Below are positions 1,519-32,150 of a stretch of 38,679 nucleotides of DNA, piece by piece. The DNA is taken from assembly GCA_035948615.1 (NCBI GenBank), contig DASZJB010000038.1, positions 1 through 38,679 of the forward strand, read 5' to 3'. The notes below the pieces were generated by a model. The model searched no databases. It was not told the DNA's origin and was given only the letters and a program-made list of their open reading frames with translations. This DNA is from Candidatus Dormiibacterota bacterium. GTDB taxonomy: Bacteria; Chloroflexota; Dormibacteria; Aeolococcales; Aeolococcaceae. How positions within the stretch are numbered: the first letter of the stretch is position 1; the number at the start of each line of letters is the position of its first letter. The position numbers and the translations under genes were made by a program.

Positions 1519-1618
1519 TGCGCACTCCATACACAAATCCGTATACTTTTCTGGAAGCCGGATCCGTCCGGTGCGGCCGGAGGGGCGACCGTCAAAGCAG
1601 GATCTTTGGAGGTAGCCC
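1519..1618 (+). promoter_or_regulatory. promoter box plus structured 5' leader, copy A (paralogous to 5150..5257)
   Basis: ATACACAAATCCGTATA (1529-1545) contains a -10 TATACT (1542-1547). A hairpin CCGGA-TCCG-TCCGG lies at 1558-1571. The conserved 18-mer CGGCCGGAGGGGCGACCG is at 1574-1591. Segment 1585-1597 (GCGACCGTCAAAG) can pair with 1604-1616 (CTTTGGAGGTAGC), covering the SD GGAGG. ATG is at 1619. Confidence 0.6.
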
Positions 1619-2005: not shown

Positions 2006-3868
<1,863 letters not shown>

Positions 3869-3892
3869 CGTCGAGCAGGACCTCTCTGGAGG

Positions 3893-4018
3893 TCAGCGCT
3901 CGGCGGGCGCCTGCGCTGCAGTCTGGGCGGCCGCTTTCTTTGCCGCCTTGGCGATTGCGGCAGCCTTCGGCTTCTTACCCTGGCGCTTCGGGGCTCCCCG
4001 AGACTTCTCTCCGGCCAC
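3893..4018 (-). CDS. 41-aa Lys/Ala-rich basic small protein, hypothetical
   Basis: Below the ORF-track size cutoff. Hand translation gives GTG-AGEKSRGAPKRQGKKPKAAAIAKAAKKAAAQTAAQAPAER-TGA. GAGGAGAG lies 5 nt upstream of the GTG at 4018. Confidence 0.4.
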   Translation of the reverse strand: MAGEKSRGAPKRQGKKPKAAAIAKAAKKAAAQTAAQAPAER

Positions 4019-4103
4019 GGCGTCTCTCCTCACGTGTTCTTGTCAGTGATGCTGAGATTAGTACAAGTTTTGATGCGTCGGGATGGACCTACAGGTCCCT
4101 GGA

Positions 4104-5111
4104 TCAGGAGAAGAGGGAGCTGTATCCGTTGAGTGCCGGCTGCCCACCGAGGTGGGCGTAGAGCACCCTTGCGGAAGGGTCAATCTCCCTGCTCGTGATC
4201 ATGTCGATCATGCCCGCCAGGGATTTGCCCTCATAGACCGGATCGGTGATCATCCCCTCCAGGCGCGCACCGAGCTTGATGGCCTCGACAGTCCGCTCGT
4301 CGGCGATCCCGTACGTCCCGGCGTGGTATCGAGCGTCCAGGATGATCTCGTCGCCGCGCAGATCACGACCAATTTCGATCAGCTCGGCCGTCTGTCGGGC
4401 GATGCGGGTCACCTGGTCGAGTGTGTCGTGGGGCTTCGCGGATGCATCGATGCCGATGACCCGGCGGGATCGCTCCTGGGTCGCAAAACCGGCGATCATC
4501 CCGGCCTGGGTGCTCCCGGTGACCGAGCACACAACGACGGTGTCGAAGAACACCCCCAGCGCTCGCTCCTGGTCCGCCACCTCCTGTGCCCAGCGGGCGA
4601 ATCCCAGACCTCCAAGGGGATGATCCGACGCGCCGGCCGGAATCGGATATGGCTTGCCACCGGCAGCCCTCACGTCGTCGAGCGCCTGCTCCCAGCTCGC
4701 CTTGAAACCGATACCGAATCCTTCCTTCACCATCCTGATGTCCGCTCCGAGGATGCGGCTGAGCAGGATGTTGCCAACCTTGTCATAGACGGGATCGGGC
4801 CAGTCGACCCAGCTCTCCTGGACGAGCACGCAGCGCATGCCCATGCGCGCGGCCACCGCGGCGACCTGACGAGTGTGGTTGGACTGGACGCCACCGATCG
4901 ACACCAGCGTGTCGCAGCCTTGAGCGATGGCGTCGGCAACCAGGTACTCCAACTTCCTGGTCTTGTTGCCTCCGAACCCCAAGCCGCTGTTGCAGTCCTC
5001 GCGCTTCGCCCACACCTCGGCGCCGCCCAGCGACGCGGTGAGCCGCTCCAGCGGATGGATCGGAGAAGCACCGAACAGCAGGGGTTGGCGAGCGAATGCA
5101 GCGAGGGTCAT
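4104..5111 (-). CDS. acdS: 1-aminocyclopropane-1-carboxylate deaminase (PLP-dependent, D-cysteine desulfhydrase family)
   Basis: 335 aa with the [14 protein letters not shown]-lysine motif, [23 protein letters not shown] and the C-terminus [20 protein letters not shown], as in characterised AcdS enzymes. Confidence 0.85.
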
Positions 5112-5149
5112 GAGCCTCCGGAAGCGCAGGACGGCGGCGAGTCTATCGC

Positions 5150-5257
5150 TTGACAGATATACACAAATCCGTATAGTCTGCTGAGTGTCCGGGTGCTCAC
5201 CCGGAACGGCCGGAGGGGCGACCGATCCCGAATCACGTCTATCGGAGGTCGTCCATC
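5150..5257 (+). promoter_or_regulatory. near-consensus sigma-70 type promoter plus structured 5' leader, copy B
   Basis: TTGACA (5150-5155), a 16-nt spacer, then TATAGT (5172-5177). The 17-mer ATACACAAATCCGTATA is at 5159-5175. A hairpin CCGGGT-GCTC-ACCCGG lies at 5189-5204. The 18-mer CGGCCGGAGGGGCGACCG is at 5207-5224. Segment 5219-5226 can pair with 5241-5251 (ATCGGAGGTCG), covering the SD. GTG start at 5258. Confidence 0.65.
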
Positions 5258-5497
5258 GTGACTCAGCTCAAGGCGCTCATCGACAACTGGATCCTCATCG
5301 CGCAAGGCCTGCTCGCGAGCGTCGGCGCGCTCGCATTCCTCATCGCGTTCATGTACAAGATCGTGGCGGTCGATCCATCCAGTGTTGCGCAGGCGAAGAA
5401 GTGGATCGGCCGCATCGTCTTCGGCACCATCGGTGTCGAGGTGGCGGGAACGCTGACCCACGCGTTGATCGCCAGTGTCCCAGCGACGATCCACTGA
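5258..5497 (+). CDS. TrbC/VirB2-like two-TM mini-pilin family protein
   Basis: 79 aa. Two hydrophobic helices ([23 protein letters not shown] and [19 protein letters not shown]) flank a short loop, [14 protein letters not shown]. This layout resembles the 'pilin' of actinobacterial T4SS-type conjugative elements, which have a GDPxxVxxAK loop. The family assignment is from memory and was not searched. Confidence 0.6.
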
Positions 5498-5506
5498 GCG
5501 CGCCTG

Positions 5507-6448
5507 ATGCAATCGGTTCCGGGGATCGTGCAGGGGATCCGCGATCCCCTCGGCACGATCCTCCAGCTGCTGACCGGCGTGCTGTCGCACTTCATCGCGA
5601 CCGCGCGAACCGACATCAACGCCGAGCTGAGCCGCTATCTCTTCACAACCGTCGACCCGATCGGATCCGGCATTCGCCCTTTGACGGCAAACCCGGCCAT
5701 CGCGCACCTGAACGGGGCGCTCGCGCTGGTCGCCGACGTGCTCGTCGGCGCGGTCCTGCTGTACGCATCGCTCCGGAGCATCTTCGAGCACTCGATCCAC
5801 GCGCGCTACGCGCTCCACCTGGTGATCCCGCGCGTCATGGCGGCGATCGTCATGGTGCACGGGTCGATGTACTTCATTCAGATGGCGATTGATCTCAACA
5901 ACGCGATCGGCGGGGTGGCGCAGTCGCTCGGCGGGCCGCTGACCATCGACACACTCCCCTGGTCGGGGTCGATGAGCGCCGCGACCGTGTCGATCATCCA
6001 GGGTTCACAGGATCTGTTCCACGCGGTCTTCGCGCTCGGCGTGGTCGTGGCCGTCGTGATTCTGATGCTCTCGTACGTGATCCGAACCGCGATGCTCGAC
6101 ATACTCGTAGTGCTGGCGCCCCTCGCGGCGTTGTGCTCGGCGCTGCCCGACACGCGCCGCTATGCATATACCTGGCTGCGTCTGTTCATGGTCGCGGTGT
6201 TCATGCAGGCCGTGCAGCTGATCATCCTCAGGGTCGCGACGGCGGTCGGGTTCGGCGCCGGGAGCGGCATCGCCGAGAGCCTGTTCGCGCTGGCGATCCT
6301 CTGGATCGTGCTCAAGGTCCCGGGAACGCTCCACGCCGCCACGCATGTCGAGACCAACGCACACACCGCGATGCGCCACGTCCGGCGGTCGATGCACAAG
6401 GCGATGGCCCCCGCACACCATGTGGTGCGCCATCGCACGGCGTTGTGA
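5507..6448 (+). CDS. polytopic membrane protein, TrbL/VirB6-like
   Basis: 313 aa with about 6-7 hydrophobic spans and a basic His/Arg-rich C-terminal tail. It starts 9 nt after the pilin-like gene. Position and topology match TrbL/VirB6-type proteins, but sequence homology was not verified. Confidence 0.55.
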   Translation: MQSVPGIVQGIRDPLGTILQLLTGVLSHFIATARTDINAELSRYLFTTVDPIGSGIRPLTANPAIAHLNGALALVADVLVGAVLLYASLRSIFEHSIHARYALHLVIPRVMAAIVMVHGSMYFIQMAIDLNNAIGGVAQSLGGPLTIDTLPWSGSMSAATVSIIQGSQDLFHAVFALGVVVAVVILMLSYVIRTAMLDILVVLAPLAALCSALPDTRRYAYTWLRLFMVAVFMQAVQLIILRVATAVGFGAGSGIAESLFALAILWIVLKVPGTLHAATHVETNAHTAMRHVRRSMHKAMAPAHHVVRHRTAL

Positions 6449-6954
6449 TCCGCGCCGCTGCCGCGGTCACGGTGCTGCTCGCTCTGGGATTGTGCGGGGG
6501 AACGGCGTTCGCCAGCGGTGCCGCGGGGATGAACTCCACCGGGGTGGGTTTCGCCAAACCGCTGGCGCACTCGTGGGTGTCGCAGGGATTCGGATGCACC
6601 AGCTTTGCCTTCGAACCCGTGGATCGTGCGTGCCCCGGCGGCCACTGGCACTCGGGGATCGACCTGGCGGCGGCGCGGGGCACGCCCGTGATGGCGACGC
6701 TCCCGGGCATCGCCACGGTCATCGTGTCGGCCACGGGATACGGCTTGCACGTGGTCATCGATCACGGCGGCGGTCTCAGCAGCCTGTACGGCCACCTCGA
6801 CTCCGTGCTGGTCGCGAGCGGCGACGTTGTGGTCCGAGGTCAGCTGATCGGTACCGTCGGGTCAAGTGGCAACGCGACCGGGCCGCACCTGCACTTCGAG
6901 ATCCGGCGAGATGGCATCGCCGAGGATCCACGAATGGACCTCTCGCTCCCGTGA
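6445..6954 (+). CDS. secreted M23 family metallopeptidase (peptidoglycan endopeptidase)
   Basis: GTG at 6445 overlaps the upstream TGA (GTGA). The signal peptide is VIRAAAAVTVLLALGLCGGTAFASG. M23 motifs present are HWHSGIDL (HxxxD) and GPHLHFE (HxH). Confidence 0.85.
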   Translation: MIRAAAAVTVLLALGLCGGTAFASGAAGMNSTGVGFAKPLAHSWVSQGFGCTSFAFEPVDRACPGGHWHSGIDLAAARGTPVMATLPGIATVIVSATGYGLHVVIDHGGGLSSLYGHLDSVLVASGDVVVRGQLIGTVGSSGNATGPHLHFEIRRDGIAEDPRMDLSLP

Positions 6955-6959
6955 GGCCG

Positions 6960-7586
6960 TTATCCCGTTGGCACGCCCGATGCGCTGCGGGTCTCCGCCG
7001 CGAGGCGGCGTGCCTGCTGCCAGACGACCCAGATCCGCTGCACCGCGGTGATGTTGGTCAGGATCGCAAGGATCCAGAGTGCCCAGATCAGCAGCGGCGC
7101 GATCACCAGACCGATGACCGTGATGACCACACGCTCAGGACGAGCCAGCAGCCCGCCGTCGCCGTTGAAGCCGAGGGACTGCGCGCGCGCTCGGACGTAG
7201 GACACGAGCAGCGATCCGGTCAGCGCAAAGACCACGAGCATCGGCTCGAGCGTGTGATGGCCGTGAAAGATGAAGTAGTAGAGGAGCGCGATGGACGTCA
7301 TCGCTTCCGCGTAGCGGTCCACGGTCGAGTCGAGAAACGCTCCGTAGCTCTGCTCGCGGCCGGTCACCCGCGCCAGCGCGCCATCGAGAATGTCGAACCC
7401 ACTGGCAATCAGCAGCAGCACGCCGCCGGGGAGGAGAAACCCGAGGGCGATCAGCACCGCAGAGCCTGCGCAGATACACAACCCGAGCATGGTCAGGATG
7501 TTCGGTGTCAGGTGCAGCGCGCGGAGTGCAGGAACGACGCGTCGCGCGCCGGACCTAACCCAGTCCTGGAGCCTGGACGTGAACAC
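6960..7586 (-). CDS. CDP-alcohol phosphatidyltransferase (phosphatidylinositol phosphate synthase, PgsA1-like)
   Basis: Signature DILDGALARVTGREQSYGAFLDSTVDR (D-G-x2-A-R...G-x3-D-x3-D) and multiple TM helices. GTG at 7586 (VFTSRLQDW...) aligns with the Mtb PgsA1 N-terminus. The longest ORF starts at 7670. Confidence 0.8.
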   Translation of the reverse strand: MFTSRLQDWVRSGARRVVPALRALHLTPNILTMLGLCICAGSAVLIALGFLLPGGVLLLIASGFDILDGALARVTGREQSYGAFLDSTVDRYAEAMTSIALLYYFIFHGHHTLEPMLVVFALTGSLLVSYVRARAQSLGFNGDGGLLARPERVVITVIGLVIAPLLIWALWILAILTNITAVQRIWVVWQQARRLAAETRSASGVPTG

Positions 7587-8724
7587 CGGATACCACCGTG
7601 CTCGCGCCGGCACGTTCACGCGCCACGCGATACACGTCGAGAACTTCGTCGACGACGTGTTCCCAGTCATACAGCTGCGCCTTGACGAGCCCGCGCTCGC
7701 TCATCGCGATGCGTCGCGCCGGGTCGTCGAGCAGCGCCCCGAGCGCCGCCGCCCACTCTTTTGGATGGCGCGGTGGAACCAGCACGCCGTCCACGTCATG
7801 GAGGATCACGCTGCTGAACCCCGGGATGGAAGACGCGATCACCGGAACCCCACTGGCCATCGCCTCCAGGAGCACGATCCCGAAGCTCTCGCCGCCGGTC
7901 GCCGGGGCGCAGAAGATGTCGGCGGACGCGTAGTAGCGCGGCAGCAGCTCCGCGGACACCCGGCCCGCGAACTCGACGTCGGGGATGCCCATGGCCGCGA
8001 CCTGACTCTCGTAGCCCCATCGCATCGGGCCATCGCCGACCACGACGAGACGCGCGTCCATGCGATGACGGCGCAGCTGACCGTAGGCCTCGAGCAAGGT
8101 CGGCAAACCTTTGCGCGACTCGAGGCGACCCACAAACAGGATCGTCGCCTTGCCGGGGGTGCGCAGCTCGTCGAGCTGGACATGGTTGGGATTGAACCGA
8201 GAGCAGTCGATGCCGTTCGGGACAACCCGGTACTCACCCTCGAAGTAGCGCGCGATGAAGTCCCGCGCGGGCACGCTCACCGCAACATGCACATGGAGAC
8301 GGTTGAAATAGCGCTTGAGAAACGGCCTGCCGTAGTAGTACCCGAGGTTGCGCCGGGCCATGGTGTGGAAGGTGCCGACGTTAGCGCCGCTGTGGAATCG
8401 CAACACCGTGATCGGCAGCGAGGGCACGAGGGGCTCGTGATAGTGGACGACGTCGAAATGGTTCTCGTCGAGCAACGCTCGCACGCGCCGCACCAAGTGG
8501 AACGACAGTGCGATGCGAGCCACGGATCCGTTGGTGCGCACCGGAACGCTCCGTCCGATGCGCACGTACCCGGGGATGCCGTGGTCATCGCCAACGCGGC
8601 TCGAGGGTGCGAGCACGGTCACGTCGTGGCCGCGCGCCCGCAGCTTGGCCGAGAGGTGCCGGACATGCTCGGTGACCCCCCCTGGATGCATGAAGTCGTA
8701 CGGGGAGACCAGGCAGATCTTCAT
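7555..8724 (-). CDS. pimA: GT4 glycosyltransferase, phosphatidylinositol alpha-mannosyltransferase PimA-like
   Basis: Starts MKICLVSPYDFMHPGGVTEHV. It carries NGSVARI, HYHEPLVPSL and GGESFGIVLLEAMASG, which closely parallel M. tuberculosis PimA. The ATG at 8724 overlaps the upstream stop (ATGA). Confidence 0.8.
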   Translation of the reverse strand: MKICLVSPYDFMHPGGVTEHVRHLSAKLRARGHDVTVLAPSSRVGDDHGIPGYVRIGRSVPVRTNGSVARIALSFHLVRRVRALLDENHFDVVHYHEPLVPSLPITVLRFHSGANVGTFHTMARRNLGYYYGRPFLKRYFNRLHVHVAVSVPARDFIARYFEGEYRVVPNGIDCSRFNPNHVQLDELRTPGKATILFVGRLESRKGLPTLLEAYGQLRRHRMDARLVVVGDGPMRWGYESQVAAMGIPDVEFAGRVSAELLPRYYASADIFCAPATGGESFGIVLLEAMASGVPVIASSIPGFSSVILHDVDGVLVPPRHPKEWAAALGALLDDPARRIAMSERGLVKAQLYDWEHVVDEVLDVYRVARERAGASTVVSGVHVQAPGLG

Positions 8725-9695
8725 CGCGTCCCGGTCGCCGGCCAGATGGGATCGAGGACGTGCCATTGCTCGGGGTGCTCGCGGATCGCCCCCTCGAAGA
8801 TGCGCAGCAGCATCTGCGAAGTCTTGCGCACCTCTGCGTCCCTCGGCGCGTCCGCGGAGTACCGGATCTCGGGATACACCATCGCGTCGACCCGATAGCG
8901 GTTGCGGAAGAGCAGGATTGGGACGATGGCGGCGCCGGCTCGGATGGCGATCTCGACCGTCCCGATCGGGATCGGCGCGGGGGTACCGAAGAACTCGAGC
9001 GGCTCGCCGTTCCCGATCAGATCGCGGTCGAGCGCCATGGCCACGACACCGCCGGAGCGGAGCACCTTGAACACCTCGCGCATCGACGCAGCGCCGAGCC
9101 TCCGCGCCACCTGCGGATCGCCCGCGCGCATCGCCTGCGTGTTGAGCGGAATGATGTGGACGCCCTGCGCGCTCCGTGCTCCGACCACGCGGTCGAAGAG
9201 TTGTTTGGGGCGGAGCACCTCGGCGACCAGCGCCATCTTGTGGCCCATCTTGTTCCAGCCGGCCAGGCCGACCTCCCAGGACCCGAAATGCATCGACGCG
9301 ACAACCACGCCGTTGCCCCGCGCGATGGCATCCTCGAAGTGGTAGAGGTCCTGGATGTCGATCCGCGACGGCAGGTCGGTCCGTCGGAACGACATCTCCA
9401 TCACATCCACCCAGCCATGGGTGAGGTTGCGGAGGTTGCGGCGGACCAGTCGCTTGAGCGGCCGTTCGCCGATCGTCGGAATGACGTGGCGAAGGTTGTC
9501 GCGCAGGCCGTCGAACCGGCTCGGCACGGTGGCCAGGAGCGCGTCGGCGGCGCGATCGCCGAGCCAGTACGACACCGATTGTGGGAGCAGACCGACCAGT
9601 GCCTCCGCCCCGCGGTAGGCGTAGTACGCCAGCATCGGGTCGCGCGCCGCGGGCGGCGGGACGCCCGTCTTGACCGCCACGTCGCCGGCCTGCAT
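8721..9695 (-). CDS. lysophospholipid/lauroyl (LpxL/HtrB-family) acyltransferase, PIM acyltransferase PatA-like
   Basis: ORF 8721..9809. I prefer the ATG at 9695 (MQAGDVAV...), 31 nt after the ino1 stop. The family call rests on context (between ino1 and pimA, as patA is in mycobacteria) and on an HtrB-like sequence (ASMHFGSWEV). Confidence 0.7.
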   Translation of the reverse strand: MQAGDVAVKTGVPPPAARDPMLAYYAYRGAEALVGLLPQSVSYWLGDRAADALLATVPSRFDGLRDNLRHVIPTIGERPLKRLVRRNLRNLTHGWVDVMEMSFRRTDLPSRIDIQDLYHFEDAIARGNGVVVASMHFGSWEVGLAGWNKMGHKMALVAEVLRPKQLFDRVVGARSAQGVHIIPLNTQAMRAGDPQVARRLGAASMREVFKVLRSGGVVAMALDRDLIGNGEPLEFFGTPAPIPIGTVEIAIRAGAAIVPILLFRNRYRVDAMVYPEIRYSADAPRDAEVRKTSQMLLRIFEGAIREHPEQWHVLDPIWPATGTR

Positions 9696-13214: not shown

Positions 13215-13290
13215 CCCAGGGTAGCCAAGTGGTCAAGGCAGCGGTCTGTAAAACCGTGTACCGATGGTTCGACTCCATCCCCTGGGACCA
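13215..13290 (+). tRNA. tRNA with anticodon GTA (Tyr by anticodon), class I architecture, encoded CCA
   Basis: Hand-folded cloverleaf. Acceptor CCCAGGG/CCCTGGG, U8, D arm GCC-AAGTGGTCAA-GGC. Anticodon stem GCGGT/ACCGT with loop CTGTAAA. 5-nt variable loop GTACC. T arm GATGG-TTCGACT-CCATC, A73, CCA. Confidence 0.85.
13249..13288 (+). repeat. direct repeat copy 1 (3' half of the tRNA)
   Basis: TAAAACCGTGTACCGATGGTTCGACTCCATCCCCTGGGAC matches 14256-14295 at 39 of 40 positions. Confidence 0.9.
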
Positions 13291-23292: not shown

Positions 23293-26200
23293 CTACCTCG
23301 ACAGCCGTCTTCGTCTCCGGCCCACAAACGCCGACCCCGCACCGGCGACGATCAGCAGCAGCCCTGGGGACAGCACCAGTAGGATCCCGGCTCCGGTGCC
23401 CGGATCCGGCACACCCGGGCTGACGATCGCATCGACTGCTCCCACCTCAGCCGGCGCTCCGCTGTCTCCGGGTCCGCTCACGGTCGCGACGTTGCGAATG
23501 TGCGTGCCCGCTGCTGCGGTGACCCTGACCAGGACGGTGATCACCGAGGTGGCGCCCACAGCGAGCGTCGCGGTGGTGTCGGTGCAGGTGATGGTCGATC
23601 CCAGCACACCACACAGCCACGCACCCGGGACCGTGCCGGCAACATGCTCGAACGCCAGGCCGTCGGGCAGAGCGTCGACCACGATCAGCGGCAGCAACGA
23701 ATCGGACGGTCCGCTGTTCTTGACGGTGAGGGCGTAGGTCGCAACGCCCCCGGTCACCAATCCGCCGGTCAGCGTCTTGGTCAGCGACAGGTTGTAGTCG
23801 CGAGTCACGGTCGCGGTATCCGATGAACTGTTGTTGGCAAGGTTCGGATCGGGATTCGATCCAGTGACTGTCGCGATGTTGACGATGCTCGATCCAACCG
23901 AAGGCGCCACCAAGACGGTGAGATCGATGACCGGGGCAGCCGCGCCGCTTGTCAATGTCGGCGCGTACGTGCACGTCACCACCTGACCGGTGGCGGCGCA
24001 CGTCCAGCCGAGCCCAGCGAAGGTGACGTACGTTTCACCGGCGGGCAATGTATCGGTGACGGTGATGCCGGCACCCTCATCCGACGGCCCCGCGTTGCTG
24101 ACCGCGAGGAAGTAGGTGGCATCCGTGCCCGCGACCAACCCGACGCCGCCATGACTCTTGGTGATCTGGAGGTCGGACTCGAGACTGAGGACGGCACTCG
24201 CGCTCCCGGTGTTGTTCGCCGGGTTGGGGTCCACCGTCGGTGACGACACGTGCGCGCTGTTGACCAGCGTCCCGGTATCCGACGACGCGAGGTCGACCGT
24301 GACGGTCAGGAGCGGTGCTGTCTGCGTGGTGGGCAGTGAGCTTGACTCCAGGCAGGTGACGTCCTGGCCCGCCGCGGAGCACGCCCAACCCGTTCCCATT
24401 CCCGAGACGAAGGTCTCTCCTGCAGGGAGCGTGTCGGTGATCGTCAATGGAGCGGCGGCATCGGCGGGGCCGTTGTTGACAACACTGATGACGTAGGTCG
24501 CGCCGTCCCCCGGGATGAACGGACCGGATGTGTCCTTGGTCAGCGCCAGATCGGCCTCAGGCACAATCGTGGTGGGATCCGTGCTCGTGTTGTTGTCCGG
24601 ATTGGGGTCGGCGGTCGTCGGGGTCACCACCGCGGTGTTGTCGACCACCTGGTCGAGCTCGCCCGCGCCGATGCCGACTACAACACTGATCGGAGTCGCG
24701 TCAGCGCCGGCCGCAAGTGCGCTCGTGGCGTCGCAGGTGACCGTGCTCGCGATGGTGGTGCAATTCCAGCCGGCGCCGCCGCTGGCGGAGAGCAGGTTCT
24801 CCGGTGCCGGCACGGTGTCGGTGACCACCAGGGGTAGCTGGGAGTCGCTCGGCCCGAGGTTGGTGACCTGCAGCGTGTAGGTGTTGCCGGTCGTCCCGGC
24901 GTCGAAGTTTCCGGTGTGACTCTTGACGATGCGCAGGTCGGCCGATTGCGTCACCGCGCTGTTGTCGGTCGACGTGTTGTTGGCGAGCGCGGGATCGAGC
25001 GTGCTGCTGCTCACCGTAGCGGTGTTGGAGATCGATCCACCCACGAACGACGGCGATATCGCGATCACGAGCGTGAGCAGCGGCTCGCTCTGTCCTGCGG
25101 GCAGCGCACCCAGCTGCGTGCAGGTCACCTGCTGCCCCGACAGCGAGCAACTCCATCCGGCGCCGCCGTGTGAGATGAAACGTTCGCCGCTCGGAAGGTT
25201 GTCGATGACGGTGATCGGTGGCGCCGCATCGCTCGGTCCGAGGTTGGTGACGGCGAGGTTGTACTTCGAGGTCTGTCCCGAGACGAACGCGCCGCTGTCA
25301 GTCTTGACGATGCGCAGATCGGCCTGGGTCGCCGAGACGTTGCTCGTTGACGACGTGTTGTTCGCACTGTTCGGATCGGGAGTCGCGCTGCTCACCGAGG
25401 CGGTGTTGACGATCGTCTGTGCCACCAGGTCGGCGGCGAGCGAGACGGTCAGCGTGATCGGGTTCGCCGACCCTCCCGCCGGGAGCGCCGCCGCCCGCGT
25501 GCACGTCACCACGCCGCTGAGGAAGCTGCACGACCACCCCGCTCCCGTCGCCGAGACGAAGCCCTCGTTGCCGGGCAGCGTATCGACCACCGAAAGGGGT
25601 GCGGCCGCGTCACTCGGTCCGGTGTTGGCGACTCGGAGCGAGTAGGTCGCGTCCTGGCCGGCCACCAGCGTGCTGGTCAGGGTCTTGACTATCGACACGT
25701 CCGCCGATTGCGTCGTCCCCGCCACGTCGGTGCTCACGTTGTTGCCCGGATTCGGATCGGTGGTCGGGCTGCTCACCGTGGCGGTGTTCGTGAGGCTCGC
25801 AACCGTGACGCCGGACCCGATGGCGACCGTCATCGACAGCGTGCGGGTGGCTCCATTCACCAGTCCCGCGGGATCGGTGCACACCTCGCTTCCGGCGACC
25901 AGACTGCACGACCATCCCGCGGAGACGCTCACGAACGTCTCGCCGGCCGGCAGGGGATCCGTCAGCGTCAGCGGTCCGGCGGCATCGCTCGGACCGTTGT
26001 TGGTGATGGTGAAGTTGTAGGTACCGTTCGTGCCCGCCTCGAAGGTGCCCACGTGCACCTTGGTGAGGACCACATCCGCAGACGTCTGCACCGATGTGGA
26101 GTCATGGCTGGTGTTGTTGGCGGGGTTGGGGTCAGTCGTCGGACCGCTGATCGTGGCGGTGTTGGTGATGCTTCCGGCGGCCTGCGAGGATGCGACATCG

Positions 26201-29200
26201 ACCACGACGGTGATCGGCGACGCGAAGGTGCCGGACGTTAACGTGGTGCTGTCGGTGCACGTGAACTGGTTCCCCGCCTGTGCCCCGCACAGCCATCCAC
26301 TGCCGGTCGCGGTGACCAGCGTCTCGTTCAGCGGAAGCGTGTCCACCATGGTCAGCGGCGCCTGCGAGTCACTTGGCCCATGGTTCTGCACACTGATGGT
26401 GTACGTCCCAGAGCCGCCGGCGGTGAAGCTGCCTGAGTGGCTCTTGGTCACCTGAAGATCCGCGCTGGCCACGATTGTCGTGGGATCGGTGCTGGTGTTG
26501 TTGGTGAGGTTGTCGTCGTACGTTGGCGAAGTCACCGACGCCGTGTTGTCGATCACCGTCCCGTCGGGCGTGTTCGCCGGCGTCGACACCACGAGGGTGA
26601 TCGGGTTTGCGGTCGCCCCGCTGGCGAGGCCGCCTGCATATGTGCACGTCACCGTGCCCGACGCCACGAGGCAGGTCCAGCTCGTGCCCGTGGCGGATAC
26701 ATAGGACTCGCCGGCCGGGATCGCGTCAGTGACCACCATCGGGCTCGCCGCGGTCGATGGACCATTGTTCGTGACGCCCAACGTGTAGCTGCCGTTGGCG
26801 CCGGCGTTGAATGTTCCGGCGTGGCTCTTGGTGATCTGCAGGTCGGCCCGCCCGATGAACGCTTGCGCAGTCGCGTTTGCGCTCGTGTAGGGGCCACTCA
26901 GCGTGCCGGTCGCACCCGAGTCGTCGGTCCACGTCGAGAACACGGTGTTGGTGTGCGGATTCGACGGACCCGTCCCGGGTGATGTCTGCGCAGCCAGGCT
27001 CGGCGTCGCCTCGTATTTGATGGTCACGTTCTGTCCGGGAGTCAGGACTCCGAGGCCACTCCAGTGCAGCACGTCACCGCCCGCGTTCGGGGTGACGGTC
27101 GGATCCGCGTGACCGTTGGGGCCGGTTGGGAAGATGATGGTTGCGGTCCCCGGATCGTAGGACCAGTTCGGCGGCAGGGTGTCGGTCGCGTCAACGCTGT
27201 CGGCACCGGCAAACCCATTGGTGTCGGTCGCCGTGAAGCTCCACTCGAACGGTGCGTTGGCGTACGCCGTTGACCCGTTCGGGGTCGACTTCGTGTCCAC
27301 CACGCTGGGAAACTGCATGGTCACGTTCTTGCTCGAGGAGATCGGACCATAGACCCTCGCGCCCGCTGGATCACCTCCGATGTTGTCCCACGATGTCAGG
27401 GTGGCGGTGTTGGCGATCACCTGCCCGACCGACAGGAGCGAGGATGCCTCAGGGATCACCTGGAAGCTCACCGTGTCCGTCTGGTTCGCGTACAGCGGTC
27501 CGGGGATCGTCCAGGTGACGTCCGTCCCATTGAAGCCGACGGTGCCCGGTGCGAGACCGGCGAGCAGCACGCTCCCCGGGACGTAGACCACACCGGCCGG
27601 AATGGGATCCTGACCGACGAGGTCGAACGCCGGGCTCACGGCCGCGAGGTTCAAGTTGGCGAGCGCGATCGAGTACGTCAGGGTGCCGTGCGGCGAGAGC
27701 GTCGCCGACGACGCGCTTTTGGTGATCGACATGTCGGGTTCAACGATCTGTGTGAGTAGCGCAGGGTTCGAGCTGGTGATCGGCTGCCCGCCCGTGGCGT
27801 GATTGGTCAGGGTGGCAACGTTGCTGATGTTGACGGTGCGTTTGTTCGCCGCGATGTTCGCGACCGTCACCGAGAAGGAGACCAGGAACACCTCGTCGCT
27901 GGCCGTCGCGTTCGCGTAGACGGGAGGAAAGCTGAAGCCGACGGTGTTGCTCGCCGCGGTGTAGCTGTATGTGAAACCACCCGGAATGAGGGTGCCTTCC
28001 GCATACGTCGTCGGGCTGCCGGGGAGGGTGACGAGACCGCTGCCGGTCACATAGGCCTGCGCAGCCCCGAGCGGATCCGCGAGTGACGCGGTGTAGAACG
28101 TCGTGTTATGCGGCACCTTCACCTGGACGGTGTATGTGATCGTCTCGCCGATCGTGGCCTGTCCGATGGCGGCGTTGCCGCTGTTGGTGATCGAGGTCAT
28201 CGCCGACTTGGTCACCGCGCCGACCGCCGTGATCACGTTGGCGGTGCCATTCGCCGCGGGGGCGTTCTCCGCGCCAACGGTGACTGTGGGATCGATGTTC
28301 GAAAGCGGAAAGTACGTGTTGTCGGGTTGTCCGGAGGCATTGTGCTCGCCGACGTAGCTGCGCACCCCGGCATTGTTTGTGAAGGTCTCGCCGGCTGCGG
28401 CGTCCGGCCGGATCTGCAGCACGTAGGAGAGGGTGGTGTTCGCGCCGACGCCGATCTGTGCGATCGCGCTCGACGGCCACTCAATCGCCTTGGCTGCCGT
28501 GACGCAGCTCCCACTCGCCGGGAGGATCGCGCTCACCTCGGAGCAGTCCTCCTGCGCCGGCAGGACATCCCATACCTCGACGTGGTACGCGGGGACCAGC
28601 CCGGTGTTGGTGACAGTGAGCGTCCACCCAACCTGGTCGTTACCGTGCACCGTGTCGCCGGTGGATGTCGGCGCCGCGCTTCCATTGATCGTGGAGACCT
28701 TCTTGGTCATGCTCAGAATGGGCTCGGCCAGCTCATAGGTCGCGAGGCTGCGCGCCGCGAACGTGGTTCCTTCGGTATTCGTGGTCACGACCTTCGCCAG
28801 GTTCTGCGTCAGCGTGAACGTCGCGCCAACGCCGAGCGTCGGATCGGCGCTCGCGATCACCGCAAACTGCACCTCGAAGAGTGCTCCCGGCGTCTGATAG
28901 AGATTGCCGTCCGCTCCCGGCGTTCCCATCGTCCATTGCAGTTCGCCAGCAGTCGGGGTCAATGTCACCGCCGAAGCGGTATTCGACGCCGTCACGGTCG
29001 CCGAACCAGCGACATACGTCGCATTCGGCGGCAGGAAGTCGCTCACCGTTGGGTTCTTGAAGTCGACGCCCGGCGCAAAGGCGACATCGATCTGGAAGCA
29101 GATCTGGTCACCCTTCTGATAGAGAGGTGGATACCCGGCCGAACCCACCGCGAGATATGTGGCGGTCGAGCAGTCCAGCGGACTGCCTGCGGCGACATTC

Positions 29201-30951
29201 TGTGAGACTGACTTGGTGATGGTCAGGCCCGGGGCATCCTGCGTGGCGGTCGCGGTTGCGTTGAGGCCGTCGACCGTTGCTGGCCCGTCGTGGGAGATGG
29301 GCGTGCCTCCGGAGACGCAGTTGGGGTTGGTTGCGTCGCAGCGAACCGAGAAATTACCGGTGGCGGTCTCCGTGTTGGTGAGAGTGTCGAAGCCGACTGT
29401 TGGAACGGTGTTGCTCTTGTTGGCCTGGTAATCGATGCGATCGACCGCCGGGAACGACACCGTGGCGATGCCATCTGGATTGACATGCCCGAGGTTCCAC
29501 ACCACGGTGAAGGTGCCGTCGGCGTTCTCCACCACCGAGGCGTAGGCGGGGTTCGGCAGCGCGCCATTCGGGTCGCACTGCGGATCAGCATGGCCGTCGT
29601 AGTTGATCGAGCCGATCGGGCACAGCCCTGACGGCAGCGTGTCGGTGACCGTCGTCGAGTCGGAGTACCGATACTCGGAGACGTTGACGACGATCGTGTA
29701 GGTCACCGCCTGCCCCTGAAGGAACGTCGGCTTGTCGATGCTTTTCGCGGTCGTGATGTCCCGGGCGGTTATCGAGGAGTACGCGCTCGCCTGGATCGGG
29801 TTGGAGCCGCCCCCGAGCGTTCCGGAATACGTACCGGAGGCAACGCCGTAGCTCGTGAGCACGGTGCCGTCCTGGGTTTCGGGCCCGCTGTTGTTGTCGA
29901 GGTTCGCCGCCTGGCCATCCGACACGGCAGTTGGCGTCGTCCCCGTCCATGTCATGGTGTTCGCCCTGATCGGAATCCCGACAACGAACCGGATGGTCGT
30001 GGTCGCGCCCGGTGCCAGGCTGCCGATGCTGTTCCATTGCACTGCCGTGTACACCGCAGTCGGCAGCGGCCCGGCGCCGTCGGGGTCGAGGTTGACCGTG
30101 GTCACCGATGTCGGAGGTGAGGTCAGGCAGCCGGCGGGAGCACCCGTGTGACCGGAGAGCGGGCCGCTGCCGGGATATTCCTCGGTGCTGCCCGGGTTGG
30201 TCGGCGTCCCGGTGGTGTTGTCCGTCTGACCGCAGAGCAGGTCCTCGAGGCCGGCCGGCAGATAGACGGTCGCCCCGACGCCGTTGGTGGCGTGCACCTG
30301 GTTGTTGGTGATCGTGACCGTGTACACCGTCTGGTGGTCATGGACACCACGGAGGAGCACCCCGCCCGGCGCCAGGCTGATCTGCAACGCGCTCAGCGCG
30401 GTCGTTCCCGAAGCATTTGCCGAGCCGGTGAAATTGCTCGCGGAGCCGCCGGCGGTGAATTGCGGAACCTGGCGCGCATCGGTGTTGACGTAGGCGGACG
30501 CGCTGTCCGTGTAGGTGCTGTTGGCGAACAGGAACGGGGCGGGACCGGTATCGGTCGCCGCGATCACCTTGAACGTGAGGGTCGCAACCGAGCCCGGCGA
30601 CAGATCGGAGACGTTGCTCCAGATGAGCGTCGTCCTGTTCAGCGACGGTTGGTTGCTGAGGATCGCCGGGTTCCCCAGGCTCCCGCTTCCGGCCACGTAC
30701 GACACGCCGGCTGGAAGCACGTCTTCGAAGCTCAGGTTATAGCCCCAGGAGCCGCCCGCAGGATTCGTGACGGTCAGCGTGACCGTGGAACTCGTCCCAT
30801 AGAGGACAGTCCCGGGAACTGTTTCGGCCAGCGAGATGTTCGGCGAGCCCGCGGCCAGCGCGCCCGAGACCGGGCCCGACGTCGTGTAGCACCCAAGCGC
30901 GATCAATGCCGCGCACAATCCGACGACCAGCTGCCGCCCAAGCCGATTCAT
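23293..30951 (-). CDS. giant (2552 aa) secreted DUF11/'conserved repeat domain' surface protein
   Basis: Single uninterrupted ORF with the N-terminal signal peptide MNRLGRQLVVGLCAALIALGCYTTSGPVSGALAAG. Ig-like repeat units fill the whole length. The C-terminus has a TM helix and an RRRRR tail. GAGG lies 8 nt upstream of the ATG. Confidence 0.9.
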   Translation of the reverse strand: MNRLGRQLVVGLCAALIALGCYTTSGPVSGALAAGSPNISLAETVPGTVLYGTSSTVTLTVTNPAGGSWGYNLSFEDVLPAGVSYVAGSGSLGNPAILSNQPSLNRTTLIWSNVSDLSPGSVATLTFKVIAATDTGPAPFLFANSTYTDSASAYVNTDARQVPQFTAGGSASNFTGSANASGTTALSALQISLAPGGVLLRGVHDHQTVYTVTITNNQVHATNGVGATVYLPAGLEDLLCGQTDNTTGTPTNPGSTEEYPGSGPLSGHTGAPAGCLTSPPTSVTTVNLDPDGAGPLPTAVYTAVQWNSIGSLAPGATTTIRFVVGIPIRANTMTWTGTTPTAVSDGQAANLDNNSGPETQDGTVLTSYGVASGTYSGTLGGGSNPIQASAYSSITARDITTAKSIDKPTFLQGQAVTYTIVVNVSEYRYSDSTTVTDTLPSGLCPIGSINYDGHADPQCDPNGALPNPAYASVVENADGTFTVVWNLGHVNPDGIATVSFPAVDRIDYQANKSNTVPTVGFDTLTNTETATGNFSVRCDATNPNCVSGGTPISHDGPATVDGLNATATATQDAPGLTITKSVSQNVAAGSPLDCSTATYLAVGSAGYPPLYQKGDQICFQIDVAFAPGVDFKNPTVSDFLPPNATYVAGSATVTASNTASAVTLTPTAGELQWTMGTPGADGNLYQTPGALFEVQFAVIASADPTLGVGATFTLTQNLAKVVTTNTEGTTFAARSLATYELAEPILSMTKKVSTINGSAAPTSTGDTVHGNDQVGWTLTVTNTGLVPAYHVEVWDVLPAQEDCSEVSAILPASGSCVTAAKAIEWPSSAIAQIGVGANTTLSYVLQIRPDAAAGETFTNNAGVRSYVGEHNASGQPDNTYFPLSNIDPTVTVGAENAPAANGTANVITAVGAVTKSAMTSITNSGNAAIGQATIGETITYTVQVKVPHNTTFYTASLADPLGAAQAYVTGSGLVTLPGSPTTYAEGTLIPGGFTYSYTAASNTVGFSFPPVYANATASDEVFLVSFSVTVANIAANKRTVNISNVATLTNHATGGQPITSSNPALLTQIVEPDMSITKSASSATLSPHGTLTYSIALANLNLAAVSPAFDLVGQDPIPAGVVYVPGSVLLAGLAPGTVGFNGTDVTWTIPGPLYANQTDTVSFQVIPEASSLLSVGQVIANTATLTSWDNIGGDPAGARVYGPISSSKNVTMQFPSVVDTKSTPNGSTAYANAPFEWSFTATDTNGFAGADSVDATDTLPPNWSYDPGTATIIFPTGPNGHADPTVTPNAGGDVLHWSGLGVLTPGQNVTIKYEATPSLAAQTSPGTGPSNPHTNTVFSTWTDDSGATGTLSGPYTSANATAQAFIGRADLQITKSHAGTFNAGANGSYTLGVTNNGPSTAASPMVVTDAIPAGESYVSATGTSWTCLVASGTVTCTYAGGLASGATANPITLVVSTPANTPDGTVIDNTASVTSPTYDDNLTNNTSTDPTTIVASADLQVTKSHSGSFTAGGSGTYTISVQNHGPSDSQAPLTMVDTLPLNETLVTATGSGWLCGAQAGNQFTCTDSTTLTSGTFASPITVVVDVASSQAAGSITNTATISGPTTDPNPANNTSHDSTSVQTSADVVLTKVHVGTFEAGTNGTYNFTITNNGPSDAAGPLTLTDPLPAGETFVSVSAGWSCSLVAGSEVCTDPAGLVNGATRTLSMTVAIGSGVTVASLTNTATVSSPTTDPNPGNNVSTDVAGTTQSADVSIVKTLTSTLVAGQDATYSLRVANTGPSDAAAPLSVVDTLPGNEGFVSATGAGWSCSFLSGVVTCTRAAALPAGGSANPITLTVSLAADLVAQTIVNTASVSSATPDPNSANNTSSTSNVSATQADLRIVKTDSGAFVSGQTSKYNLAVTNLGPSDAAPPITVIDNLPSGERFISHGGAGWSCSLSGQQVTCTQLGALPAGQSEPLLTLVIAISPSFVGGSISNTATVSSSTLDPALANNTSTDNSAVTQSADLRIVKSHTGNFDAGTTGNTYTLQVTNLGPSDSQLPLVVTDTVPAPENLLSASGGAGWNCTTIASTVTCDATSALAAGADATPISVVVGIGAGELDQVVDNTAVVTPTTADPNPDNNTSTDPTTIVPEADLALTKDTSGPFIPGDGATYVISVVNNGPADAAAPLTITDTLPAGETFVSGMGTGWACSAAGQDVTCLESSSLPTTQTAPLLTVTVDLASSDTGTLVNSAHVSSPTVDPNPANNTGSASAVLSLESDLQITKSHGGVGLVAGTDATYFLAVSNAGPSDEGAGITVTDTLPAGETYVTFAGLGWTCAATGQVVTCTYAPTLTSGAAAPVIDLTVLVAPSVGSSIVNIATVTGSNPDPNLANNSSSDTATVTRDYNLSLTKTLTGGLVTGGVATYALTVKNSGPSDSLLPLIVVDALPDGLAFEHVAGTVPGAWLCGVLGSTITCTDTTATLAVGATSVITVLVRVTAAAGTHIRNVATVSGPGDSGAPAEVGAVDAIVSPGVPDPGTGAGILLVLSPGLLLIVAGAGSAFVGRRRRRLSR
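23296..23412 (-). other. C-terminal sorting-signal-like tripartite motif (VPDPGTG / hydrophobic helix / RRRRR)
   Basis: VPDPGTGAGILLVLSPGLLLIVAGAGSAFVGRRRRRLSR, the last 39 residues of the giant protein. Confidence 0.6.
23413..26847 (-). repeat. nine tandem in-frame DUF11-type repeats of about 125-129 aa (about 380 bp)
   Basis: Each unit follows ADLxITKxHxGxFxAG..YTLxVTNxGPSDxxxPLxVxDTLPAGExFVSxxGxGWxCxxxGxxVTCT...NTAxVSSPTxDPNxxNNTS. The first unit starts at RADLQITKSH (GCC at 26847-26845). The units are diverged at the DNA level. Confidence 0.85.
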
Positions 30952-32031: not shown

Positions 32032-32078
32032 CGGCGCATTGTCGGACAGCCCGGCCGTGGTGCGACCCGGTTCGGCCG

Positions 32079-32150
32079 TACCCGCACGGGGAGTCGAACC
32101 CCGGTTACCACCTTGAAAGGGTGGTGTCCTGACCGCTAGACGATGCGGGC
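32079..32150 (-). tRNA. tRNA-Glu (anticodon TTC)
   Basis: The minus strand reads GCCCGCATCGTCTAGCGGTCAGGACACCACCCTTTCAAGGTGGTAACCGGGGTTCGACTCCCCGTGCGGGTA. It folds as a canonical cloverleaf with anticodon loop CTTTCAA. CCA is not encoded. Confidence 0.9.

Follow-up and report, generated by a model that had tools for sequence, protein, structure and literature searches.

A pilin-like, VirB6-like and M23 peptidase operon of Candidatus Dormibacterota as a probable part of a scattered apparatus derived from type IV secretion

We analysed a 38.7-kb stretch of DNA from Candidatus Dormibacterota (contig DASZJB010000038.1; hereafter the window, meaning the whole stretch), in which three tightly packed genes encode a two-helix protein that resembles VirB2-type pilins, a polytopic TrbL/VirB6-family membrane protein and an exported M23 peptidoglycan endopeptidase (Table 1). 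Our reading, to which we assign a probability of about 0.6, is that this operon encodes the envelope parts of a chromosomally fixed, relaxase-less apparatus derived from a type IV secretion system (T4SS), the genes of which are scattered and vertically inherited throughout the phylum. The initial annotation of the window, made from the sequence alone, had named the same three families, and these assignments are upheld, although the pilin match lies below the Pfam threshold. Its description of the packing is exact: the first two genes are separated by 9 nucleotides (5498–5506) and the last two overlap by GTGA (6445–6448). The actinobacterial (Actinomycetota) source that it had supposed is wrong, as the DNA comes from Candidatus Dormibacterota.

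Protein families and inheritance of the trio

The initial annotation had staked its reading on a profile relation to VirB6 families, and such a relation was found: the 313-amino-acid (aa) protein scores 37.2 bits against Pfam TrbL_4 (PF19597), above the curated cut-off of 27, and falls just under the cut-off of TrbL (PF04610) at 21.6 bits. Predicted structure points the same way. With an AlphaFold2 model built from a 51-sequence alignment (predicted local distance difference test (pLDDT) 76, predicted template modelling score 0.65), the six best Foldseek matches in the Protein Data Bank (PDB) are all TrwI/VirB6 chains of the R388 T4SS. The top five have probabilities of 0.99–1.0, E values of 0.004–0.016 and TM-scores of 0.27–0.50, the sixth has a probability of 0.75 (E = 0.13), and no fold other than VirB6 rose above noise in this search. 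A first model from a shallow alignment (pLDDT 55) was discarded. Searching PDB sequences with the TrbL profile gave no match, nor did tblastn of the window TrbL and a canonical TrbL_3 protein against the PLSDB plasmids.

The consistent, near-full-length top match of the 79-aa protein is Pfam T4SS_pilin (PF18895; profile positions 4–69 of 71, E = 0.012), at a sub-threshold 16.1 bits against a gathering score of 26.6 bits. Eight of 14 diverse relatives match the same family, the best with E = 6e-5. The protein carries no signal peptide and matches the mature two-helix part of canonical pilins, minus their long signal peptide. Its gene is always directly upstream of the TrbL gene in the loci examined, and the assignment is supported by the recurrence of this pilin–TrbL adjacency in ordinary conjugative clusters on two metagenomic contigs, one with T4SS_pilin, TrbL_3, PrgI and VirB4 (L181) and the other with TrbL_3, T4SS_pilin, VirB4, SLT, a TrwB-like protein and a relaxase (L183).

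The third protein matches Peptidase_M23 (PF01551) over profile positions 3–96 of 96 (E = 1e-30), with both zinc motifs intact inside the domain (HSGID, the HxxxD motif, and HLH, the HxH motif) and an N-terminal hydrophobic signal. The M23 gene lies 3′ of TrbL in three divergent lineages. The enzyme would have a VirB1-like hydrolase role and open peptidoglycan locally.

Relatives of the 313-aa protein (49–98% identity) occur in 41 species-level genomes. The initial annotation had asked whether the trio is conserved at its locus without ATPases. All 41 loci have the pilin-like gene directly upstream of TrbL and the M23 gene downstream. Reading frames are intact in nearly all loci, both in these 41 and in those of two further clades. 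Synteny extends over the entire neighbourhood, typA to ArsR, in L001–L033; more distant members have the trio in different surroundings, where no ATPase lies within 10 kb. Median ratios of nonsynonymous to synonymous substitution rates (dN/dS), measured against the window copy, are 0.032 for the pilin-like gene, 0.091 for TrbL and 0.146 for M23, and 0.040 and 0.052 for the housekeeping genes typA and Ino1. The identities of TrbL and M23 track those of typA and Ino1 (rho = 0.65–0.69), compared with rho = 0.72 between typA and Ino1 themselves. Base composition is native, as previously noted, with a GC fraction of 0.64–0.68 in the region and in the remainder of the window. The trio consists of working, vertically inherited genes; the module is domesticated and not mobile, which was one of the two readings in the initial annotation.

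Several related contigs (L004, L029, L170, L171, L217, L230 and L234) are clearly Dormibacterota by sequence, sharing as much as 94% protein identity with the window, and are recorded under other names; the labels are Saccharimonadales, Acidiferrales, Verrucomicrobiia, Micrarchaeia, Nanopelagicaceae and Eisenbacteria. These labels are probably SMAG binning or labelling errors.

A VirB4-family motor in sister lineages and the competing readings

A TrbL profile search of 1.8 billion representatives returned 3785 relatives. A second Dormibacteria clade (clade 2), with about 37% identity in TrbL and 46% in the pilin-like protein, keeps a compact chromosomal cluster in approximately 40 loci, in the order CHAP and SLT hydrolases, followed further along by VirB3-like/ParA-like, a VirB4-family ATPase, p198, Dtd, pilin and TrbL. 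The ATPase passes the Pfam models P-loop_TraG, AAA_10 and DUF87 and matches NCBIfam VirB4 models at E = 1e-31 to 6.5e-43, the top model being the CD1110-type VirB4. Its plasmid relatives, found by tblastn, are mostly VirB4 proteins of conjugative plasmids from the monoderm Firmicutes and Actinomycetota; one Chloroflexota plasmid match (H4) provided no useful context. In the annotated loci, the 10 kb on either side contain neither an annotated relaxase nor a coupling protein.

The pilin–TrbL–M23 trio appears again in a third, large clade known from soil metagenomes. On one of its contigs (L285), a VirB4-family gene, p198 and Dtd lie 7–9 kb upstream of the trio, with housekeeping genes between. 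On contig L264, a VirB3-like/VirB4 pair stands alone, and the RNR gene is 76–84% identical to that of the trio-bearing L035. Given these three arrangements, the phylum shows a series from compact through loosely linked to scattered. Two candidates (P0337 and P0335) could not be assigned to the window clade. The stand-alone VirB3-like/VirB4 pair is directly preceded by an Flp/Fap-type pilin gene and a response regulator (L264, 1599–1820).

The initial annotation had described a stand-alone system without ATPases. That description stands for the window locus, where a Pfam scan of every plausible gene found no VirB4/VirD4-type ATPase, relaxase or integrase and tblastn likewise found no VirB4-family ATPase; it does not stand for the sister lineages, in which a VirB4-family ATPase and a VirB3-like protein adjoin the pilin–VirB6 pair or are encoded no more than 10 kb from it. 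The annotation had also allowed that relatives might carry the trio contiguous with VirB4, VirD4 and a relaxase, of which the VirB4-family linkage is found in sister lineages and a nearby annotated relaxase or coupling protein is not. The linkage to VirB4 and VirB3-like genes makes it more likely that the trio is a detached piece of a larger, scattered apparatus. We class the window locus as T4SS-derived components and not as a T4SS, because it lacks a VirB4 gene, the defining test for such systems: VirB4 is the only ubiquitous T4SS marker (PMC4027160).

A motor gene of the VirB4 family is probably encoded elsewhere in the window's own genome, because trio-bearing lineages keep it and because VirB2 extraction and assembly on VirB6 require VirB4 in the systems that have been studied. 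The DNA inspected amounts to approximately 1–2% of any one window-clade genome. A pattern scan with two ATPases, a profile search with at least 11 matches and a combined p198 and ATPase query, each directed at a VirB4 partner for the window clade, gave matches in other clades only.

The p198 protein (198–215 aa, cytoplasmic, of no known family, with motifs ITFYPPRY and FLEAEAEAMR; L168–L262, for example L169 8616–9688 and L257 9980–11073) was considered as a component and not counted, since it is always paired with the housekeeping D-aminoacyl-tRNA deacylase (Dtd), even without T4SS genes near. Almost all Dormibacterota loci with a p198 gene have it just upstream of Dtd, and in L257 a tyrosine recombinase gene lies just upstream.

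A single-stranded-DNA-binding protein (SSB) gene follows M23 directly, or TrbL where M23 is absent, in 70 of 193 TrbL-bearing loci from three lineages (L034–L040, L042, L044, L069, L174, L187 and L266–L336), a linkage that the initial annotation omitted together with the P120 partner described below. Because of this recurrent position, the ancestral operon was probably pilin–TrbL–M23–SSB. The linked SSBs are 114–148 aa long, and the two copies that were read end without an acidic C-terminal tip. Housekeeping SSBs carry such a tip, and some competence or plasmid SSBs do not. The SSB linkage suggests single-stranded DNA as cargo, and we propose DNA as the substrate only tentatively, at somewhat less than even odds.

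We hypothesize that the VirB6-like protein forms a membrane platform or channel, as in the R388 model, on which the two-helix VirB2-like subunit would be assembled or by which it would be gated. M23 would clear peptidoglycan locally, P120 would act as an extracytoplasmic accessory, and a VirB3/VirB4 motor encoded elsewhere would supply energy. A tail-less SSB, linked to the pair in sister lineages, is presumed to be encoded elsewhere in the window genome. Together these parts would make a membrane conduit, or the base of a short filament, through which single-stranded DNA crosses the envelope, by uptake or release.

Several observations weigh against the proposed apparatus. A VirB4-family gene is absent from the window and from approximately 40 kb of each window-clade genome examined, with none within 10 kb on either side in L001–L047, and three window-clade p198–Dtd loci (L256, L257 and L262) lack the ATPase that adjoins p198 elsewhere. 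The pilin assignment is below Pfam's threshold, and hhalign gave no significant match between the pilin profile and either of two single canonical pilins. The rate at which the pilin-like protein evolves is as low as that of typA, which is unusual for an exposed pilin, so that a buried membrane subunit fits better. The SSB gene is unlinked to the operon in the window clade, and the idea of a DNA substrate draws on gene neighbourhood only.

A rival reading is a minimal envelope module that works without an ATPase, the VirB4 motor having been lost and the pilin-like, VirB6-like, M23 and P120 proteins acting alone. They might, for instance, form a membrane pore that is coupled to local remodelling of the cell wall, and the module would be switched by a leader RNA not described before, which would occlude the Shine–Dalgarno sequence. 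The ATPase is missing from the window and from the window-clade loci examined, even beside p198–Dtd; the lineage has gained a leader of its own and, in P120, an additional gene, neither of which clade 2 has; and the extreme conservation of the pilin-like protein suits a structural membrane subunit. If true, this would be the first free-standing use of a VirB2–VirB6 pair, under a leader whose 18-nucleotide core is invariant across orders. We nevertheless consider it unlikely, given the small fraction of any window-clade genome that was inspected, the VirB4-family ATPase kept on the same contig by a lineage with the same trio (L285), the stand-alone VirB3-like/VirB4 pair on a contig whose RNR gene is close to that of trio-bearing L035 (L264) and the dependence of VirB2 assembly on VirB4.

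Much less probable is a cell-wall or division operon unrelated to T4SSs, in which the likeness to TrbL and pilins would be a coincidence among helical membrane proteins. The sub-threshold pilin match and the modest TM-scores to VirB6 (0.35–0.50) would permit it, M23 enzymes are common in division, and a bactofilin gene lies near the trio in L285. Such a coincidence is difficult to reconcile with a TrbL_4 score above the curated cut-off, with VirB6 chains as the sole high-probability PDB matches, with the VirB3 and VirB4 homologues that adjoin the pair in the clade-2 loci, or with the same pilin–TrbL adjacency in bona fide conjugative clusters.

The remaining alternative of the initial annotation, an old integrative conjugative element decaying in place, could draw on the conjugative ancestry of the components and on the plasmid VirB4 proteins closest to the linked ATPase, and is refuted by the presence of the trio in 41 of 41 species loci and two further clades with nearly all frames intact, by strong purifying selection (dN/dS 0.03–0.15) and divergence congruent with housekeeping genes, and by native composition, with neither integrase nor relaxase in the window scans and no direct repeats found to flank the operon.

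A shared leader RNA, the P120 protein and the surroundings of the operon

The pilin operon is preceded by a promoter that agrees with the consensus at 11 of 12 positions, is the sole such site in 3800–7200 and is nearly invariant 5′ of the pilin gene in L001–L033. Downstream lies a conserved 80-nucleotide leader with two predicted helices. In the second (P2), GGGCGACC (5216–5223) pairs with GGTCGTCC (5247–5254), and the helix covers the 3′ half of the Shine–Dalgarno sequence GGAGG (5244–5248) together with the spacer. The two-helix fold is predicted alike in single-sequence folds of five divergent leaders, and manual comparison shows that the GC-rich P1 stems co-vary between lineages (UCCGGG/CCCGGA, CCAGG/CCUGG, GCAGC/GCUGC, CGGGC/GCCCG and CCGGUC/GACCGG). 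An alignment by MAFFT and RNAalifold misaligned P1 and recovered just five P2 pairs, and was not relied on. The 18-nucleotide core CGGCCGGAGGGGCGACCG does not vary, even between loci whose TrbL proteins are only about 50% identical.

As the initial annotation had seen, promoter and leader are shared with a second locus: ACACAAATCCGTATA and CGGCCGGAGGGGCGACCG each occur exactly twice, at 1531 and 1574 and at 5161 and 5207, with equal spacing. The promoter–leader element is present in L001–L047 and L129–L164, and in the Dormibacterota loci examined the leader motif occurs only 5′ of the pilin gene or the P120 gene. The size of the leader regulon per genome is a lower bound, as a genome-wide scan for the 18-mer is full of chance matches in these GC-rich genomes. 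No Rfam 15 family matches the leader at its gathering score, and permissive filters on 5100–5300 gave a chance-level match only. Possibly the leader is a novel cis-regulatory RNA, acting by occlusion of the Shine–Dalgarno site. Judging from the predicted fold, its second helix would bury part of the ribosome-binding site and hold translation of both local units off until it opens.

The second copy of the promoter and leader stands before the gene of a 120-aa secreted protein, P120, located 3.6 kb upstream of the trio. P120 is a probable fourth component of the system, because in L034 and L035 its gene lies directly 5′ of the pilin gene, in one operon with a single leader, because 37 related loci carry it on the same strand no more than 10 kb upstream, and because it is under purifying selection (dN/dS 0.16). 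The gene is absent from the clade-2 loci. No Pfam or NCBIfam family matches the protein.

The soil clade L266–L322 has a different conserved promoter-like element 5′ of the pilin gene, CTTAACAGGCnGGGTTCCC ... CTAGCGTGGG, and several of its leaders contain an upstream CCUCC that is able to pair with the GGAGG ribosome-binding site.

Table 1. Coordinates of the operon, its control elements and other features of the window
Feature	Position	Strand	Description
Gene 1	5258–5497	+	79-aa VirB2-like (T4SS_pilin-like) protein, two transmembrane helices; GTG start
Gene 2	5507–6448	+	313-aa polytopic TrbL/VirB6-family membrane protein; ATG start
Gene 3	6445–6954	+	169-aa exported M23 (LytM-type) peptidoglycan endopeptidase; GTG start
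Pilin-operon promoter	5150–5177	+	TTGACA, 16 nucleotides, TATAGT; ATAC-N8-GTAT dyad in spacer
Conserved 5′ leader of pilin operon	5184–5257	+	P1 hairpin 5188–5205; 18-mer CGGCCGGAGGGGCGACCG 5207–5224; P2 helix
Second promoter and leader copy	1519–1618	+	−10 TATACT 1542–1547; 18-mer 1574–1591
P120 gene	1619–1981	+	120-aa secreted protein; signal peptide, Pro/Ala-rich linker, conserved C-terminal helix
CDP-alcohol transferase gene	6960–7670	−	
GT4 gene	7555–8766	−	
tRNA-Tyr(GTA)	13215–13290		
tRNA-Glu(TTC)	32078–32150		
Giant open reading frame	23293–30951	−	2552 aa; 13 DUF11 repeats

According to Pfam, the operon is flanked by typA, by a PALP-family (ACC-deaminase-like) gene and by a block of genes in convergent orientation (CDP-alcohol transferase, GT4, acyltransferase, Ino1 and ArsR), so that the trio adjoins genes for inositol lipids. 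M23 is the last gene of the operon in the window clade, with six bases left between it and the convergent lipid gene. The listed frames of the CDP-alcohol transferase and GT4 genes overlap by about 115 nucleotides; the true start of the former, which is called at 200–256 aa in relatives, probably lies 3′ of the first ATG. Insertions vary in the interval between the PALP gene and the pilin promoter (5112–5149), which measures 0.15 kb in the window and has 1–3 kb of extra DNA in several relatives (L005–L008 and L017–L021), and the PALP gene is absent from some relatives. Elsewhere in the window, neither of the two tRNA genes is adjoined by an integrase or repeat. The 2552-aa open reading frame, which in addition to its DUF11 repeats has weak Ig-like and MG10-like matches, is probably a giant surface or adhesin-like protein.

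Relation to described systems and significance

The closest described system is the chromosomal T4SS of Patescibacteria (or candidate phyla radiation, CPR), which lacks a relaxase, is related to the monoderm class MPF-FATA (mating-pair formation FATA) and comprises VirB2-like pilins (PF18895), VirB6, PrgI/VirB3 and VirB4, with an inferred co-option for a role other than conjugation; Patescibacteria have been placed as sister to the Chloroflexota/Dormibacterota branch (PMC12102498). Both systems are chromosomal and relaxase-less and share VirB6; the pilin-like protein of the window matches PF18895 below threshold, and counterparts of PrgI/VirB3 and VirB4 are known in Dormibacterota only from the sister lineages. 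Whereas the CPR genes are mostly clustered near virB4 and include variable, multi-copy pilin arrays of about 25% identity, Dormibacterota have one extremely conserved pilin-like gene and a broken-up cluster. Further differences on the Dormibacterota side are the M23 hydrolase, P120 as a partner, the dedicated leader RNA and, among relatives, an SSB encoded in the operon. The hosts differ as well, being free-living soil bacteria in the one case and epibionts in the other.

Conjugative T4SSs of the MPF-FATA class, represented here by L181 and L183, have the same adjoining T4SS_pilin and TrbL_3/4 genes, along with PrgI-like and VirB4-family genes and a cell-wall hydrolase. These elements are mobile, with a coupling protein and relaxase (L183), long pilin signal peptides and TrbL proteins that can be much longer (691 aa in L181). 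The Dormibacterota trio, in contrast, is vertically inherited without relaxase, coupling protein or integrase, and its pilin-like protein has no leader peptide.

Three better-studied systems are informative in other respects. The ComB system of Helicobacter pylori is a chromosomal T4SS subset, with homologues of VirB2, VirB3, VirB4 and VirB6 among others and no VirD4 or relaxase, that moves DNA. Its component list and the SSB linkage fit. ComB is close by mode of action, without a specific sequence relation; it is, however, a diderm system with VirB7–10, and DNA uptake in Dormibacterota is purely inferred. For the R388 TrwI/VirB6–VirB2/VirB5 stalk (PDB 7O3V, 8RT9 and 8RTD), the source of the only specific fold matches of the 313-aa protein, the likeness is mechanistic: in the model that it supplies, VirB2 subunits assemble on a platform made of VirB6. 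The 313-aa protein is 11–15% identical to R388 VirB6, with TM-scores of 0.35–0.50, and no VirB5 homologue was recognised in Dormibacterota. The rvh T4SS of Rickettsiales is functional although its genes lie in several chromosomal islands, and it is vertically inherited (PMC2653234). Its likeness to the Dormibacterota genes is one of genome organisation, in that scattered genes are inherited vertically; rvh belongs to an MPF-T-like diderm class, has duplicated VirB6 paralogues, retains VirB4, VirB11 and VirD4, and secretes effectors.

Our literature search found no published account of a secretion or DNA-transfer machine in Dormibacterota. The features that are new relative to the described systems are the single, ultra-conserved, leaderless pilin-like subunit, the M23 hydrolase, P120, the dedicated leader RNA, the operonic SSB in relatives and the stepwise dispersal of the genes.

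Dormibacterota are abundant, uncultured bacteria of soil and permafrost. A phylum-wide, vertically inherited, relaxase-less T4SS derivative would, if true, be the free-living counterpart of the Patescibacteria system, and would open the question of whether the latter descends from a common Terrabacteria ancestor or was captured from Firmicutes. The gradient from compact to scattered gene order offers a natural experiment in the domestication and dismantling of a conjugation machine. The dedicated leader may represent a new regulatory RNA, and the SSB linkage points to uptake or release of DNA in bacteria for which routes of horizontal gene transfer lack description.

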